This document shows positions 3,895-45,523 of a DNA stretch of 64,000 nucleotides, in pieces. The position numbers and the translations under genes are program-made. This DNA is from Clostridia bacterium. GTDB taxonomy: Bacteria > Bacillota > Clostridia > TANB77 > CAG-508. The notes beneath the pieces were generated by a model. The model was not told the origin of the DNA. It saw only the letters and a program-made list of their open reading frames with translations, and ran no database searches. The stretch covers positions 130,217 through 194,216 of the forward strand of contig JAFWIH010000005.1 of NCBI GenBank assembly GCA_017533795.1, given 5' to 3'. Each line of letters begins with the position of its first letter. Position 1 is the stretch's first letter.

Positions 3895-6186
3895 ATGAAG
3901 TTAATAGATAAATTTTTGAAGAAATTAAATACTAGTAGAAATACATTTGCTACATATATATTAACCTTAATATCTATATATTTGGCAGTAGATAGAATTA
4001 CTGAAATGTTAATAATGATTTTCTCGGGAGTTTCGATATCATATTGGGGGCCATTTAAATATACAATTGCAATGGCATGTGTTGTGTTTGCATACCTATT
4101 CTCAATACAATCAGAATTTGGAAAATCTAAAAACGTTAAGATAACTCTTTTCTATGTATATGTAATAGGTTTATATGTAATGGCAATTTCTATGATTACA
4201 CAATGGGTAAACGAACTTGCCTGGTTATTATTCTTATCTGTACCAAATTACACGGGAATAATATCTGAGTTTTCTGATTTAGTAAAACCAGCATTCACTG
4301 CTCTAGCATTATATTTTCCATTAGTTACAGTTCTTCCAATAATAAAGAAAATAGTGCTTGGTGTTAATGACAGTACAGAGATGAAACGTTCTTTATGGGA
4401 CTTTAAAGGAATAAACTTAACAGAAAGCAAAGAAGGAAAAGGACCATATTCATACGAAATGTTTATGTTTTCAGATAAAGAAACAGGAAAGCCTGTAAAG
4501 ATGCTAGAATCTAAAAGATTTCAACCAACATTGGTATGTGGTGCTTCTGGTACAGGAAAAACATCTTTAATATTTGAACCTATGATGGCAAGAGATATAG
4601 AAAAGAAGTTTTTCTTTAGAGAAGTTTCAAAAGAAATGGGATTTACAGCATTAAAAACAGGAATTGCTACATTAAGGTCACCATATAATAATGAATACAT
4701 TAACGAAAACTTTAGTTTAAATATGCTAGTGCCAAAAGAAGAAAAAGAAAAAGTATTTAAAGCATATATGAAAAAACTTATAGTATCAGATTCAGATAGT
4801 CTTATATACAAAAATATAGGAATAACTTGTATGGCCCCAGACTTTGAAGTTATATCACATATGATGGATGTATGTGAAAACTTCAAAATAAAGTATAATT
4901 TAATAGATCCTTCAAGCAACTCGTCAATGGGATTAAATCCATTTATCTATAAGGATCCATCAAAAATTGCAACAACAGTTTCATCTGTACTTAAAGGAAT
5001 GTACCTTTCAAAAAATGCAGAAAAAGAAGATGCATACAGTGAAGATGTAACATTACAAGCTGTTGAGAATTTAACAATATTATTAAAAGAAATATATCCA
5101 AGAATGAATGAGGGAGCTTTACCTAATTTAGAGGATATGTTAAAATTGCTAATAAACTTTGAGTTAGTTGAAAAAATGTGTAAAATACTTGAAGCTGACA
5201 ATAAATTAGCAGAAAAATATGCTATACAACTTGCATATTTTAAGAGGAATTTCTTTAAAGATGGAGTCGCAAGACAAGATACAGAAAGAGCAATTTCTAC
5301 ATCTGTTTCACAGCTAGATAATTTACTTAGAATTCCAGGAGTAAAAAGTGTGCTATGTAACAGACATGAAAATATAAACTTTGATGATATGCTTGCTAAT
5401 GGAGATGTTACATTTGTATGCACAAGAAGAGGAGAACTTGGTGCGACAGCACATAAAGCATTTGGATTGTTTTTCTTATTATCAATGCAAAATTCAGTAT
5501 TAAGCAGACCTGGATTTGAAAGTACTAGAATACCAAACATATTGTATATAGATGAATTTGCAGATTTCGTAGGAAAATCAACAGAATCATTATTTACAAT
5601 GTATCGTAAGTATAGAGTAGGTGTAGTAGTATCAGCTCAAAGTTTGGCACAATTTGGAGAAGAACACTCTAGATTTAGAGAAAATATTTTAGCAAACTGT
5701 AGAAGCAAAATATTTACAGGTGGGACTACACCAGATGAGGCTGAATGGTGGATGCATGAATTTAATAGAAGAAGAAAATGGAGCTACTCTAAAGACTTGG
5801 ATGTTAAAAATGGTAAAATTGAATACAATTCTAAATACGGAGGAGTAAAATATGATTGGGAAGACTATTTTAAACCTGGCAGATTATTAGGACTTGGATT
5901 TAAGCAATGCGCATATGAAATAGCTTCAGATAAAAAGCCATTCTATGGTGAAGGCGTATTAAACTTCATGGATTCAAAATACAAAGAACCACAATCAATA
6001 AAAAGATATGACTTTGACAGATTTAGTGATAAAGACAATGGTAGAGATGACACATATATAAGTGGTAAAAAAGTAGTTAATGATGATAGTGACAGCCCAG
6101 TTAAAACAGATACAAGTGACTCAAAATATTTCTATGATAACCAAGATGCGGTTTCATATAAACTACCTAGAAGAGGAAAAAAATAA
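3895..6186 (+). CDS. TraG/TraD/VirD4-family P-loop ATPase with a polytopic N-terminal membrane domain
   Basis: Walker A VCGASGTGKTS, Walker B ILYIDEFADF, followed by VVVSAQSLAQFG (TraG-D_C-like). About 5 N-terminal TM segments. Confidence 0.7.
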   Translation: MKLIDKFLKKLNTSRNTFATYILTLISIYLAVDRITEMLIMIFSGVSISYWGPFKYTIAMACVVFAYLFSIQSEFGKSKNVKITLFYVYVIGLYVMAISMITQWVNELAWLLFLSVPNYTGIISEFSDLVKPAFTALALYFPLVTVLPIIKKIVLGVNDSTEMKRSLWDFKGINLTESKEGKGPYSYEMFMFSDKETGKPVKMLESKRFQPTLVCGASGTGKTSLIFEPMMARDIEKKFFFREVSKEMGFTALKTGIATLRSPYNNEYINENFSLNMLVPKEEKEKVFKAYMKKLIVSDSDSLIYKNIGITCMAPDFEVISHMMDVCENFKIKYNLIDPSSNSSMGLNPFIYKDPSKIATTVSSVLKGMYLSKNAEKEDAYSEDVTLQAVENLTILLKEIYPRMNEGALPNLEDMLKLLINFELVEKMCKILEADNKLAEKYAIQLAYFKRNFFKDGVARQDTERAISTSVSQLDNLLRIPGVKSVLCNRHENINFDDMLANGDVTFVCTRRGELGATAHKAFGLFFLLSMQNSVLSRPGFESTRIPNILYIDEFADFVGKSTESLFTMYRKYRVGVVVSAQSLAQFGEEHSRFRENILANCRSKIFTGGTTPDEAEWWMHEFNRRRKWSYSKDLDVKNGKIEYNSKYGGVKYDWEDYFKPGRLLGLGFKQCAYEIASDKKPFYGEGVLNFMDSKYKEPQSIKRYDFDRFSDKDNGRDDTYISGKKVVNDDSDSPVKTDTSDSKYFYDNQDAVSYKLPRRGKK

Positions 6187-6223
6187 TTAAGTTTTATGTT
6201 CCAAAAGTATTAAAAATTTCATA

Positions 6224-6272
6224 AAAAATTACTCTACCCAAAAAATAATTAATTGGGTAGAGTAAATTTTTT
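6224..6272. terminator. Bidirectional intrinsic terminator between convergent genes
   Basis: 12-bp perfect stem TTACTCTACCCA / TGGGTAGAGTAA, flanked by an A-run on the left and a T-run on the right. Confidence 0.65.
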
Positions 6273-6275
6273 GTA

Positions 6276-7307
6276 CTATTTCTTCCAGCATTGAGGATCA
6301 GAAGCATAAAAGTTTCCTGTTAAACATTTGGCAACTGAAGGGCAACCCCTACAAAAATTTCTGAGTTGACAATTTGCACACTTTGAAAACTTATCATACT
6401 GTCGATACTCTTCCATCTTTTTGCCCCAGAATATATCATAAAAAGAATCATGCAAAGCGTTTCCAATAGGTGTTTTGCTCCTTCTACATGCATATACTGT
6501 GCCATCTGTTAACAATGTCATGTGGCATATTCCACAGTGGCATCCGTCCAATATAAGATTTTCCGAATTTTCAACACAGGAAATGTCAAACAAGCCTTTT
6601 TCATATAGAAAAAGCTTCCAAAGATGATCCTTGAGCGAGAAAAAAGTGTTACATCCGGTATGCTCTACATATTTATTCCACATTAGTTCAAGAAAATCAT
6701 GATATTCGTCAGGAGATGGTAAGAATTCATATCCATCTGGATTAGGACAATATCGTGCAAAAGCGAATCGATTAGCTCCGTGCTCTACAACAATATCAAC
6801 TAAATCAGGTAATTCGTTCATATTAATTGTTGATACTGTGGCCATAATTGTAGCTGTTATGCCTGCTTCTTTTAAACAATCAATTTTTTGCAAAGTTTCT
6901 TTAAAAGAGCCTGGCTTACGCATATAATCATGAGTTTGCTCTAATCCATCTAAAGACATTTGATAGGTATGACACCCTAAGCTTTTCAGTTTTGAAGCAA
7001 CTTCACTATCTAAATGAAATGGATTACCTAATATAGAAAATGATATTCCATTTGAATGTAGTAAATCAAGGAACTCCCAAATATTTTTGTACAGCAGTGG
7101 GTCTCCGCCAGTAATAGACATGGTTGGTCTTCTATCACACTCTTCACAAAAACTAATGTAATTGTAAAGAAGGTGCTTCATATCATCCATCTCTAAATCT
7201 GGTGTTGAACATTTAGCACCGTTACCATACAAATAACAATGTTTACACCTTTGATCGCATTTTTCCGTAATATGCCATTGTAAACCAAATGCTTGTTTTT
7301 CACACAT
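6276..7307 (-). CDS. Radical SAM enzyme with a C-terminal SPASM-type Cys cluster (peptide maturase)
   Basis: CDQRCKHC (CxxxCxxC) near the N-terminus. C-terminal CANCQLRNFCRGCPSVAKCLTG...DPQCW. A Cys-rich small ORF lies immediately upstream. Confidence 0.85.
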   Translation of the reverse strand: MCEKQAFGLQWHITEKCDQRCKHCYLYGNGAKCSTPDLEMDDMKHLLYNYISFCEECDRRPTMSITGGDPLLYKNIWEFLDLLHSNGISFSILGNPFHLDSEVASKLKSLGCHTYQMSLDGLEQTHDYMRKPGSFKETLQKIDCLKEAGITATIMATVSTINMNELPDLVDIVVEHGANRFAFARYCPNPDGYEFLPSPDEYHDFLELMWNKYVEHTGCNTFFSLKDHLWKLFLYEKGLFDISCVENSENLILDGCHCGICHMTLLTDGTVYACRRSKTPIGNALHDSFYDIFWGKKMEEYRQYDKFSKCANCQLRNFCRGCPSVAKCLTGNFYASDPQCWKK

Positions 7308-7333
7308 AATAACTACATCCCTAATCTGGTCAA

Positions 7334-7363
7334 TGTGGTGAGTCCCTTTATGGACTCACCACA
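7334..7363 (-). promoter_or_regulatory. Stem-loop between the precursor peptide gene and the maturase gene
   Basis: 12-bp perfect inverted repeat TGTGGTGAGTCC / GGACTCACCACA with a 6-nt loop. No U-tract follows it. Confidence 0.55.
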
Positions 7364-7396
7364 TATCATATACACGTACTACCTAGAACTCAATGA

Positions 7397-7564
7397 TTAA
7401 TCATCACATGCTCCACATCCAGTTTCGCAAGGAGGCTCACATGGCGGAGAAGTCATAGACTTACTGGAATTAACCTTTTTTTGGCTTGACAAATATTGCT
7501 GAAATGATTTTTTGGGGGCATAGACTACTTTGTTTTGCCAATAATTAGCTTTGCTTTTTTTCAT
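7397..7564 (-). CDS. Unannotated 55-aa Cys-rich RiPP precursor candidate
   Basis: ATG at 7564 with AAAGGAA 10 nt upstream. Translation MKKSKANYWQNKVVYAPKKSFQQYLSSQKKVNSSKSMTSPPCEPPCETGCGACDD. Same strand as the rSAM gene and 89 nt upstream of it. Confidence 0.65.
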   Translation of the reverse strand: MKKSKANYWQNKVVYAPKKSFQQYLSSQKKVNSSKSMTSPPCEPPCETGCGACDD

Positions 7565-7822
7565 GCTAATTCAATTCCTTTCAAACATAGTAAATTTGAT
7601 TTTAATAAGTTAAAAATGGTTTTTAAGCATAACCTCCATTCTTATGCCGAAATGTTACAATTAACTGCAATTCTTATATGCCTCACACCCTTCAAAATAG
7701 TACAATATACAAAAAACTATTAAGTTTTTTGTATATAAGTGAATAGATACAAATCTATTTTAGCACTTTTTACATATTATGTCAACATATGTGATATGTA
7801 CCATCAAACTGTGCATACTAAT

Positions 7823-9806: not shown

Positions 9807-9932
9807 AAATTCGATTTCGACCAATGAGGACGGGAAAACGGTCAAAGGGGACGGAGGATTTTGACAGAAAATCTGTCAAAATTCTCCGTCCCCTTTGACC
9901 GTTTTCCCGTCCTCATTGGTTGAATTTGAATC
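9807..9932. repeat. GC-rich palindromic intergenic repeat, copy A (GGGGACGG-core family)
   Basis: Core 9820-9920 is a roughly 49-bp-arm palindrome with 2 mismatches around a 4-nt centre. It fills the gap between the convergent rplT and spoVAE stops. Confidence 0.85.
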
Positions 9933-23880: not shown

Positions 23881-23954
23881 AGAGTCAACCACCGGCTCCA
23901 ACCAATGGGGACGAGATTCCAACCACCGGAGACGGGTTCGATTTGGTTGACTCT
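23881..23954. repeat. GC-rich intergenic repeat, copy C (composite and degenerate)
   Basis: Outer 10-bp inverted repeat AGAGTCAACC / GGTTGACTCT. Contains CAACCAATGGGGACG and CAACCACCGGAGACGGGTTCGATTTGGTTGAC units. Confidence 0.75.
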
Positions 23955-25724: not shown

Positions 25725-25764
25725 AACTGCGGTCAACCACGGGGGACGGGTTCGTTTTGGTTGA
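25725..25764. repeat. GC-rich intergenic repeat, copy D (single arm)
   Basis: GGTCAACCACGGGGGACGGGTTCGTTTTGGTTGA. It shares a 25-nt block with copy E in the opposite orientation. Confidence 0.75.
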
Positions 25765-28039: not shown

Positions 28040-28120
28040 TGAGGACGAAAGAACGGTCAAAGGGGACGGAGGATTTTGACAGAAAACCTGTCAAAATCCT
28101 CCGTCCCCTTTGACCGTTCT
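28040..28120. repeat. GC-rich palindromic intergenic repeat, copy B
   Basis: Perfect 33-bp arms AGAACGGTCAAAGGGGACGGAGGATTTTGACAG (28050-28082 and 28088-28120). The right end overlaps the engB stop by 2 nt. Confidence 0.85.
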
Positions 28121-45221: not shown

Positions 45222-45358
45222 AAGCACTCCTTTCTAATTAGAGTATTAACAAGTGCATGGGACAAAAGAAATAGCGATATTTCGCATTTCATATATATTA
45301 TAACAAATTTTACATAATGTGTCAAAGAGCAAACTAAAAGGTTATTCCTACTAAAATT

Positions 45359-45489
45359 ATACAGGTGGATTATATCATGAAATCTAATTGAATTAATGAA
45401 GAATTTATTATATAATTAGCCTAATAAAGAAAATTGGATATTTTATTTAATATATGCACGTAATATTGTAATCTTGCGAACAAGTTAAA
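45359..45489 (+). repeat. Duplicated promoter-leader module, copy 1 (about 93% identical to 49038-49167)
   Basis: Contains TTGAAT (45388-45393), a 17-nt spacer and TATAAT (45411-45416). Conservation continues about 65 nt into the 5' UTR. Confidence 0.8.
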
Positions 45490-45523
45490 TAAAGGAAGTA
45501 ACATTTTTAAAGGGGGATTTTAA

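Follow-up and report, generated by a model that had tools for sequence, protein, structure and literature searches.

The described system to which the locus reported here stands closest is the ACGX system, in which a radical S-adenosylmethionine (rSAM) enzyme with a SPASM domain (model TIGR04340) is paired with a Cys-rich peptide (model TIGR04341), both models being graded 'hypothetical equivalog' in NCBIfam/TIGRFAMs. The locus lies in a 64,000-nt stretch of DNA from a Clostridia bacterium (contig JAFWIH010000005.1 of assembly GCA_017533795.1, positions 130,217 to 194,216), which we call the window. It comprises an open reading frame (ORF) for a 55-residue Cys-rich peptide (7564..7397, minus strand), a gap of exactly 89 nt and, on the same strand, the gene of a 343-residue rSAM enzyme (7307..6276). 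Taken as a whole, it is best explained, and with good confidence, as a self-contained two-gene operon for a ribosomally synthesised and post-translationally modified peptide (RiPP), in which the enzyme most likely modifies the adjoining peptide. The original prediction, made from the letters of the window, had proposed the same compact arrangement of precursor, structured spacer and rSAM/SPASM maturase, and it survived all the tests run.

This kind of system and the enzyme family are already known, and the enzyme itself is already annotated: a protein identical to it (100%), MBR3162695.1 from a Clostridia metagenome-assembled genome, carries the NCBI name of the ACGX system. The locus had been called unannotated, which holds for the peptide, for which NCBI has no record, but not for the enzyme. 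With the ACGX system it shares an enzyme above the family cutoff, a peptide gene directly upstream, a stem-loop in the spacer, the lack of a linked protease or exporter and an anaerobic clostridial host. However, it differs in several respects: (i) the window peptide gives no match to TIGR04341; (ii) its leader of about 38 residues (N-Y-W...Y...Q) contrasts with a canonical leader of about 12; (iii) its core is a single, non-repeated segment of 16-17 residues with Pro and Glu; and (iv) its enzyme falls in a sister clade, with 48-53% identity to the canonical enzymes.

The best-scoring characterised family is SbtM/SbtMa (TIGR04082). SbtM converts the Cys or Sec of a Gly-Cys motif to a thio(seleno)oxazole through abstraction of a β-hydrogen (Lewis et al. 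2021, as related in PMC9204691). The match to this family spans the whole rSAM and SPASM region of the window enzyme, and SbtM, too, targets Cys flanked by small residues. In contrast, the match is limited to model positions 196-515, the N-terminal ~195 residues of SbtM being missing from the window enzyme, and the peptide ORF has no in-frame TGA or selenocysteine codon and a single Gly-Cys site (G49-C50). A second point of comparison is provided by the captophorins, Cu-binding 5-thiooxazole peptides such as fontiphorin, which is made from EGKCG repeats by O2-dependent multinuclear non-haem iron oxidative enzymes (MNIOs) (PMC12668002). Like the window peptide, their precursors have several Cys flanked by small residues, with interspersed charged residues; unlike it, they are processed by an O2-dependent non-haem iron enzyme with a partner protein, in Pseudomonadota.

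The original prediction had placed the locus nearest to SCIFF/ScfB or CLI_3235/CcpM. Hidden Markov model (HMM) searches point instead to the curated ACGX system, and because the enzyme falls in TIGR04340 the comparison with those systems is only a generic one. The SCIFF/ScfB-CteB-Tte1186 ranthipeptides and CLI_3235/CcpM do share with the window a short clostridial Cys-rich peptide beside an rSAM/SPASM enzyme, the lack of a dedicated exporter and a chromosomal site amid housekeeping genes. However, the window enzyme and peptide fail the models of both systems, and the enzyme starts 16 residues before its CxxxCxxC motif, whereas the SCIFF and CLI_3235/CcpM maturases carry an N-terminal RiPP recognition element (RRE) domain.

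The maturase is an ACGX-family enzyme without an RRE domain

The enzyme (6276..7307, minus strand) is a member of TIGR04340 ('radical SAM/SPASM domain protein, ACGX system'), which it matches over its full length with 470.7 bits against a cutoff of 400 (E = 2.8e-141). It belongs to the radical SAM/SPASM superfamily by motif, by Pfam domains and by fold. The CxxxCxxC motif and the SPASM-like Cys cluster read from the sequence earlier correspond to the SAM-cluster motif C17-x3-C21-x2-C24 and to a Pfam SPASM match (PF13186, 34 bits) at residues 256-314, PF04055 (Radical_SAM) scoring 73.9 bits. In the AlphaFold2 (AF2) model, which is confident (pLDDT 88.8), the best fold matches are SuiB (TMq 0.77), SkfB, the anaerobic sulfatase maturase (anSME; TMq 0.72-0.75), ChlB and PqqE, aligned without their RRE domains where these are present; the fold search thus returns generic SPASM maturases and does not discriminate between types of chemistry. 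A sequence search of the PDB gave distant relatives only, the best being SkfB (60 bits). No N-terminal RRE domain was found in the enzyme, either by the NCBIfam search or in the AF2 model and fold comparison. In a 27-member alignment the invariant Cys are the SAM triad plus C187, C256, C258, C274, C310, C313, C319, C322 and C340; judged from this alignment, the nine extra Cys would suffice for two fully Cys-ligated auxiliary clusters.

The NCBIfam search of the enzyme gave 74 matches, of which the best 25 were ranked, the 25th scoring 53.3 bits. SbtM is second (199.5 bits, E = 9.5e-59), below its cutoff of 350, and further down, likewise below their cutoffs, are MftC (mycofactocin, 74.5), SkfB (62.7), anSME (61.3) and PapB (56.7); StsB scores 56.2. 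Neither the ScfB nor the CcpM maturase is among the best 25, so both score below 53.3 bits, and the SCIFF and CLI_3235 peptide models do not match the window peptide at E<=10; the models concerned are presumably TIGR03973/TIGR03974 for SCIFF/ScfB and TIGR04065/TIGR04068 for CLI_3235/CcpM. The identity of the system with either is therefore rejected. The same is true of anSME (TIGR03942), a non-peptide family to which the enzyme might have been assigned: anSME is also an RRE-less rSAM enzyme with a SPASM domain and of similar length, it resembles the window enzyme in fold and it oxidises the β-carbon of Cys, but the score lies far under the cutoff of 349, no sulfatase is found among the neighbours, there is no C-x-P-x-R motif, and the window enzyme has a peptide gene dedicated to it.

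Enzymes of the TIGR04340 family are common in gut and rumen Clostridia, yet no published biochemistry was found for them; a homology search at E<=1e-20 returned 3412 sequences, related families included. One literature match to 'ACGX' turned out to be a GenBank accession prefix.

Peptide and enzyme are paired across two clades

Loci were retrieved through the enzyme only, 21 of them from species-representative genomes, 80 from metagenomes and 7 by exact-protein look-ups, and are designated here by L numbers. Upstream DNA was sufficient in 104 loci, and in 102 of these the enzyme gene is directly preceded, on the same strand, by a small Cys-rich ORF; this adjacency persists across ~50% divergence of the enzyme. 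The pairing of peptide and enzyme is obligate in this sense, and the co-occurrence on which the original prediction depended is present across genomes.

A neighbour-joining tree of 90 distinct enzymes resolves two clades, and the split matches the class of the peptide. In the first clade, whose members are the canonical ACGX enzymes, the precursors are ACGX-repeat peptides of the type MALSNVAEFAG...(PSACGSACGA..)n..GDK, with a short leader of about 12 residues (MALSNVAEF or MALKNLFG) followed by (S)ACG[SA] repeats, and they score 55-59 bits on TIGR04341. In the second, sister clade, which contains the window, the enzymes are 53-76% identical to the window enzyme and the peptides combine a leader of 30-70 residues, bearing the motif K-x-N-[YF]-W..V-x-Y..Q, with hypervariable Cys-rich cores that are unrelated to one another, examples being NPCTCSCSTACGSCDGPCGDGSGD, DCSCNCSSGCSACSSSCGSCTSCSTSCS, ECESGCNNSCGTACASGCTDF, ECGDGPCGIGGCGDSGCDNY, GCGGGCGGGCIGGCGGGCL and, in the window, SPPCEPPCETGCGACDD. 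There are three exceptions: the L084 peptide lacks the leader motif, and L080 and L095, the latter with only 190 nt of upstream DNA, have no identified upstream peptide. When 22 long-leader precursors were aligned, W9, Q22 and C50 (window numbering) were invariant and Y15 and C46 nearly so, the consensus reading K-T-N-Y-W-x3-V-x-Y-x4-S-A-Q.

The window enzyme thus stands outside the clade neighboured by ACGX-repeat peptides, and its peptide, as far as sequence comparison goes, belongs to a separate long-leader precursor class and not to the ACGX-repeat class. At E<=10 neither the window peptide nor that of L001 matched TIGR04341, a model with a cutoff of 28 bits for which two canonical peptides, run as positive controls, gave 59.4 and 55.3 bits; the ACGX repeat itself is reduced in the window core to one CGAC remnant. 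Searches of NCBIfam and Pfam with the peptide gave no family match. A profile of the long-leader class, run against 5.8 billion proteins, retrieved 42 clusters, named 'hypothetical protein' where they are named at all, and the window's own core subtype is rare (four clusters). The window peptide is a new kind of presumed substrate for the ACGX enzyme family. Three things are missing from the databases queried, namely the class of precursor that the sister clade carries, the motif of its leader and the fact that TIGR04341 covers only half of the family: the curated peptide model spans one of the two enzyme clades, while the peptides of the other are 'hypothetical proteins' or are not called as genes. 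This class supplies a new precursor model for annotation pipelines and for the mining of RiPPs.

The precursor is under coding selection

The precursor, MKKSKANYWQNKVVYAPKKSFQQYLSSQKKVNSSKSMTSPPCEPPCETGCGACDD (55 aa), has a ribosome-binding site of its own, as had been noted before: an AAGGA Shine-Dalgarno sequence lies 11 nt ahead of the ATG. Codons 1-38 (7451..7564, minus strand) form the leader, with the motif K-A-N-Y-W-x5-V-x-Y-x6-Q, and codons 39-55 (7400..7450, minus strand) the core, SPPCEPPCETGCGACDD, the boundary between the two being putative; the stop codon follows at 7397-7399 on the same strand. The four Cys of the core, C42, C46, C50 and C53, fall within 12 positions, as originally described; one of them follows Gly and the others follow Pro, Pro and Ala, and acidic residues are found adjacent to Cys or three residues past one.

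Public assemblies contain the peptide in identical form as well as three orthologues (65-78% identity), each about 85 nt upstream of an orthologous gene for a 343-residue rSAM enzyme and one of them also, as in the window, with Maf upstream. All four peptides retain the reading frame and the stop codon when their DNA is aligned. The orthologues conserve the N-terminal MKKSKANYWQN.V.Y and a near-invariant core, SPPC[DE]P[PS]CETGCGACDD, while the linker between them varies. Between the window and L111 the 17-codon core differs at six synonymous and no non-synonymous positions. These patterns in the aligned sequences indicate that the peptide ORF is under coding selection and its core under purifying selection, and because the core changes are synonymous only, a chance ORF is ruled out. 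The family therefore has what is generally expected of a RiPP precursor: a conserved leader, a core that varies between subtypes, purifying selection and co-variation with the enzyme.

Proposed mechanism and chemistry of the product

We propose that transcription would start at the promoter at 7785-7757, proceed through a leader of ~190 nt, the precursor gene, the stem-loop and the rSAM gene, and end at 6223-6271. The enzyme would presumably bind the leader motif directly, since it has no RRE, and act with a 5'-deoxyadenosyl radical on the core, at its four sites centred on Cys. Our single best guess for the chemistry, put forward tentatively and by analogy, is an SbtM-like oxidation in which the β-hydrogen of Cys would be abstracted and the residue cyclised onto the preceding carbonyl, giving one or more 5-thiooxazoles. 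We base it on four considerations: (i) no other characterised family comes nearly as close in HMM scores as SbtM; (ii) it abstracts the β-hydrogen of Cys beside small residues; (iii) several cores of the sister clade consist of little besides Gly and Cys, so that side-chain thioethers would find few partners; and (iv) MNIOs make multi-thiooxazole peptides from similar Cys-repeat precursors in aerobes, and strict anaerobes would have to achieve this without O2. Should the SbtM-like chemistry hold, the captophorins could be functional analogues of the window peptide, a purely hypothetical link that would connect anaerobic rSAM chemistry with the newly recognised thiooxazole metallophores.

Several observations count against this picture, at the level of the pairing or of the chemistry. 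L080 and L107 have ample upstream DNA, and no small Cys-rich ORF could be recognised at any place in either locus; they may be orphan enzymes, or else have their peptide encoded at another site. Between the two clades, the peptide classes have no homology detectable from their sequences (a profile-profile comparison with hhalign gave 11% probability), so that a recognition logic shared by both is not established. The SbtM score falls below the family cutoff (199.5 against 350) and, with the N-terminal ~195 SbtM residues missing, a shared chemistry is an extrapolation, one made to a core in which a single Cys of the four is preceded by Gly. Finally, a literature search for the ACGX name, for TIGR04340/TIGR04341 or for the repeat motif returned no relevant paper and no experiment on any TIGR04340 member.

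The main rival, next after thiooxazole formation and in our view possible but somewhat unlikely, leaves the operon as it is and makes the enzyme a thioether-forming maturase that would join Cys sulfur to an α, β or γ carbon, as in sactipeptides and ranthipeptides, and so give a small, knotted product (a C-x3-D link from C50 to D54, for instance, or one from Cys to Glu or Asp). Most characterised pairs of an rSAM/SPASM enzyme and a Cys-rich peptide do make thioethers (AlbA, SkfB, CteB, PapB), SkfB is both the best PDB sequence match and a top fold match, and the acidic residues beside or three residues past Cys in the core would be suitably placed. However, the thioether formers score low against the HMMs (SkfB 62.7, PapB 56.7 and StsB 56.2, compared with 199.5 for SbtM), and cores such as GCGGGCGGGCIGGCGGGCL, made up almost only of Gly and Cys, offer hardly any side-chain acceptor. 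Thioether formers also typically keep an open site on an auxiliary cluster for the substrate thiolate, whereas the count of conserved Cys, a matter of alignment and not of structure, would permit fully ligated clusters here. Other kinds of chemistry take up the remaining probability.

No protease or exporter is linked to the family, and the product probably acts inside the cell or uses generic host factors; it is possibly a thiol- or metal-reactive peptide. A wider reading built on thiooxazole formation, which we regard as speculative and rather doubtful, is that the ACGX enzymes are RRE-less SbtM relatives that would give strict anaerobes an O2-independent rSAM route to multi-5-thiooxazole peptides, the anaerobic equivalent of the captophorins; in that case the long-leader clade would be a hypervariable library of thiol- or metal-reactive peptides, S-methylated in many relatives by a TehB-like enzyme (see below) that would need a +1 frameshift at a rare CGG codon. 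With its two genes (55 aa and 343 aa) and no accessory ones, the window itself provides a minimal construct well suited to heterologous expression.

A conserved stem-loop separates the two genes

The spacer between peptide and enzyme genes contains a stem-loop at 7333..7364 (minus strand), with a perfect 13-bp stem, a 6-nt loop and no U-tract. It had been described as a perfect 12-bp hairpin at 7334-7363; the perfect pairing stands, and the stem is one base pair longer. Its folding energy is -23.5 kcal/mol (z = -6.4 relative to shuffles), and perfect hairpins with stems of at least 12 bp are themselves uncommon by chance, with five distinct ones in the window, two of them within the operon, compared with ~0.3 in shuffles. 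In close relatives (L109-L113) the lower 9 bp of the stem are invariant, while C-G pairs at the top are replaced by T-A, a compensatory change, or by a T-G wobble. A stable stem-loop (-16 to -29 kcal/mol) occupies the spacer in 19 of 21 loci drawn from both clades, with no sequence similarity and usually no U-tract. Position and stability are thus kept and sequence is not, and a structural RNA role at this site is therefore favoured. Rfam holds no family for the hairpin.

Because it lacks a U-tract, the stem-loop is not a canonical terminator. By analogy with many lanthipeptide and other RiPP operons, where a similar spacer hairpin is known, it most likely protects or creates a short mRNA carrying the precursor alone, which would keep the substrate in excess over the enzyme. 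Two facts tell against such an effect on mRNA ratios: the U-tract is missing, and L005 and L007, with spacers of 49 nt, have no stem-loop at all. It is conceivable, though we think it the less probable reading, that the element does not set a ratio and instead masks the ribosome-binding site of the enzyme gene or times its translation, binds a protein, or acts as a weak terminator that usually uncouples the enzyme gene. The missing U-tract, in the window and in most relatives, would fit this, as would the end of the stem ~26 nt ahead of the enzyme start codon and the invariant lower 9 bp in close relatives, which would also suit a sequence-specific binding site. However, the conservation of position and stability and not of sequence across the clades argues for a generic role such as protection of a 3' end, and the layout is that of the RiPP operons just mentioned.

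Among the enzymes recovered in the NCBIfam search, AhbD and NirJ act on tetrapyrroles, and anSME acts on sulfatases. That the small ORF is no substrate at all, the rSAM enzyme acting on a non-peptide or on another protein and the peptide being an unrelated metal- or Fe-S-binding protein or a chance ORF, is very improbable: although AhbD, NirJ2, NirJ1 and NirJ rank third, fifth, ninth and tenth in that search (127-94 bits), and although the enzyme has no RRE and the locus no protease or exporter, the scores fall far under the cutoffs (AhbD 127 against 500, anSME 61 against 349), the two genes stay adjacent in nearly all loci over ~50% enzyme divergence, the enzyme clades track the peptide classes and the synonymous-only change in the core excludes a chance ORF.

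Promoter, 5' leader and terminator of the operon

Upstream of the peptide gene lies a σ70-type promoter, TTGACA-17-TAAAAT with an extended TG (7757..7785, minus strand; 11 of 12 consensus positions), whose hexamers and spacing are conserved in L109, L111, L113 and L001. Just downstream of it, an A/U-rich perfect palindrome, ATATACAAAAAAC-N-GTTTTTTGTATAT (7705..7736, minus strand), could fold as a hairpin with a 14-bp stem (-13.5 kcal/mol, z = -5.3); it is invariant in L109 and L111-L113, and in L001, where the top of the stem differs, the bases still pair. Further along the 5' leader is the box AAGAATGGAGGTTATG (7628..7643, minus strand), near-invariant across six aligned sequences: 3 of its 16 positions vary, and all six share the core ATGGAGGT unchanged. 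In its exact form the core, AATGGAGGT, is confined to the closest clade, and palindrome and box are together conserved only there (L109-L113, with the palindrome also in L001). The conservation of the leader likewise does not extend beyond the closest clade. Without the palindrome the leader is no more structured than shuffles (z = +1.4), and no Rfam family matches leader, palindrome or box. The two elements may be an operator, an RNA hairpin or attenuator, or an element of another kind.

The operon ends in an intrinsic terminator at 6223..6271 (minus strand), where a 13-bp stem (-21.6 kcal/mol, z = -5.6) has an A-run on one side and a U-run, UUUUUU, after it; the terminator also faces the convergent 763-residue gene described below, and Rfam gives a weak 'uup' hairpin match at its position. 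Since it follows the stop codon of the enzyme, the transcription unit consists of two genes. A candidate internal promoter for the enzyme at 7333-7306 was rejected, as the site is not conserved in L109-L111 and its -10 element overlaps the start codon.

Genomic neighbourhood

The window, with a GC content of 28.8%, is AT-rich and comes from the chromosome of a spore-former. On one side of the locus the order is RNase HII, CdaA, TruA, DUF2651, a convergent TraG-D_C-like gene of 763 codons and then the rSAM and peptide genes; beyond the peptide follow Maf, infC-rpmI-rplT, SpoVAD and RsmB. The immediate neighbours (Maf, infC-rpmI-rplT, the TraG-D_C-like ATPase, DUF2651 and TruA) include no protease or exporter, in agreement with the original prediction, and clustering of the flanking ORFs of 111 loci revealed no recurrent protease or transporter/exporter. 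The recurrent neighbours of the canonical ACGX loci (L002-L021, L082-L108) are an HxlR regulator (21 loci), a nitroreductase (22), a Sir2-like protein (25), a Macro-domain protein (12) and a PNPOx-ferredoxin fusion (14), which may hint at a redox, thiol or electrophile-stress context, or may reflect no more than the shared gene order of related Lachnospiraceae. A TehB-like methyltransferase of ~195 residues is the sole recurrent neighbour in the long-leader clade, found in 28 loci by ORF clustering and in 35 by tblastn; the window has none (tblastn, 1e-3), and in the closest outgroup, L001, the gene is fragmented.

In at least 11 divergent loci of this clade the methyltransferase gene is split into two overlapping ORFs at the same spot (L023 ~4512, L027 ~4468, L033 ~3187, L047 ~4005, L054 ~1920, L056 ~3224, L062 ~3990, L066 ~1885, L073 ~1855, L077 ~2296 and L079 ~4001), and an unshifted version is present in L069 (~2857). 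The methyltransferases of the split loci are 33-45% identical. The junction reads NNN-CGG-(A/G/T)TA in the 0 frame and GGN-TAY-TTT (G-Y-F-[VI]-G-N-F-F-G) in the +1 frame, and skipping the C of CGG restores ...NNG-GYFVGNFFG... and a Pfam TehB match across the junction (46 bits). CGG is a rare codon, with 3 occurrences among the 15175 codons of the window and 10 among the 165 Arg codons of the rSAM genes in methyltransferase-bearing loci. From these sequence features, the split has the look of programmed +1 frameshifting, conserved among the loci, at a 'hungry' codon.

A divergent ZnuA/ABC-3/ABC_tran metal-uptake operon stands beside one long-leader pair (L024, 1-1986), a single case that does not recur. 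In the window, the 763-residue ORF (3895-6186, plus strand) gives weak TraG-D_C/VirD4-like matches (Pfam 29.6 bits; NCBIfam CD1115-type 32.6) amid the housekeeping genes; it is perhaps a remnant, or else a divergent ATPase akin to coupling proteins. Upstream of infC-rpmI-rplT, as expected, is a full-length match to the ribosomal protein L20 leader (RF00558; 8532-8659, plus strand) with 51.1 bits (E = 1.5e-08), under the Rfam gathering score of 58.7.

Two families of long, near-perfect and GC-rich palindromes occur in this 29%-GC window, at 9825-9903 and 28040-28120 and also at 23919-23943, 25733-25757 and 55384-55474; the stems at 28050-28120 and 55384-55474 measure 33 and 42 bp. They share GGGGACGG and TTTGACA motifs and are intergenic, standing after genes (for example directly past rplT), and by their sequence they look like repeated terminator elements akin to repetitive extragenic palindromes (REP) or miniature inverted-repeat transposable elements (MITE). 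Lastly, a 140-nt direct repeat, 92% identical, is present at 45353-45492 and 49032-49171, its two copies lying 3.7 kb apart.

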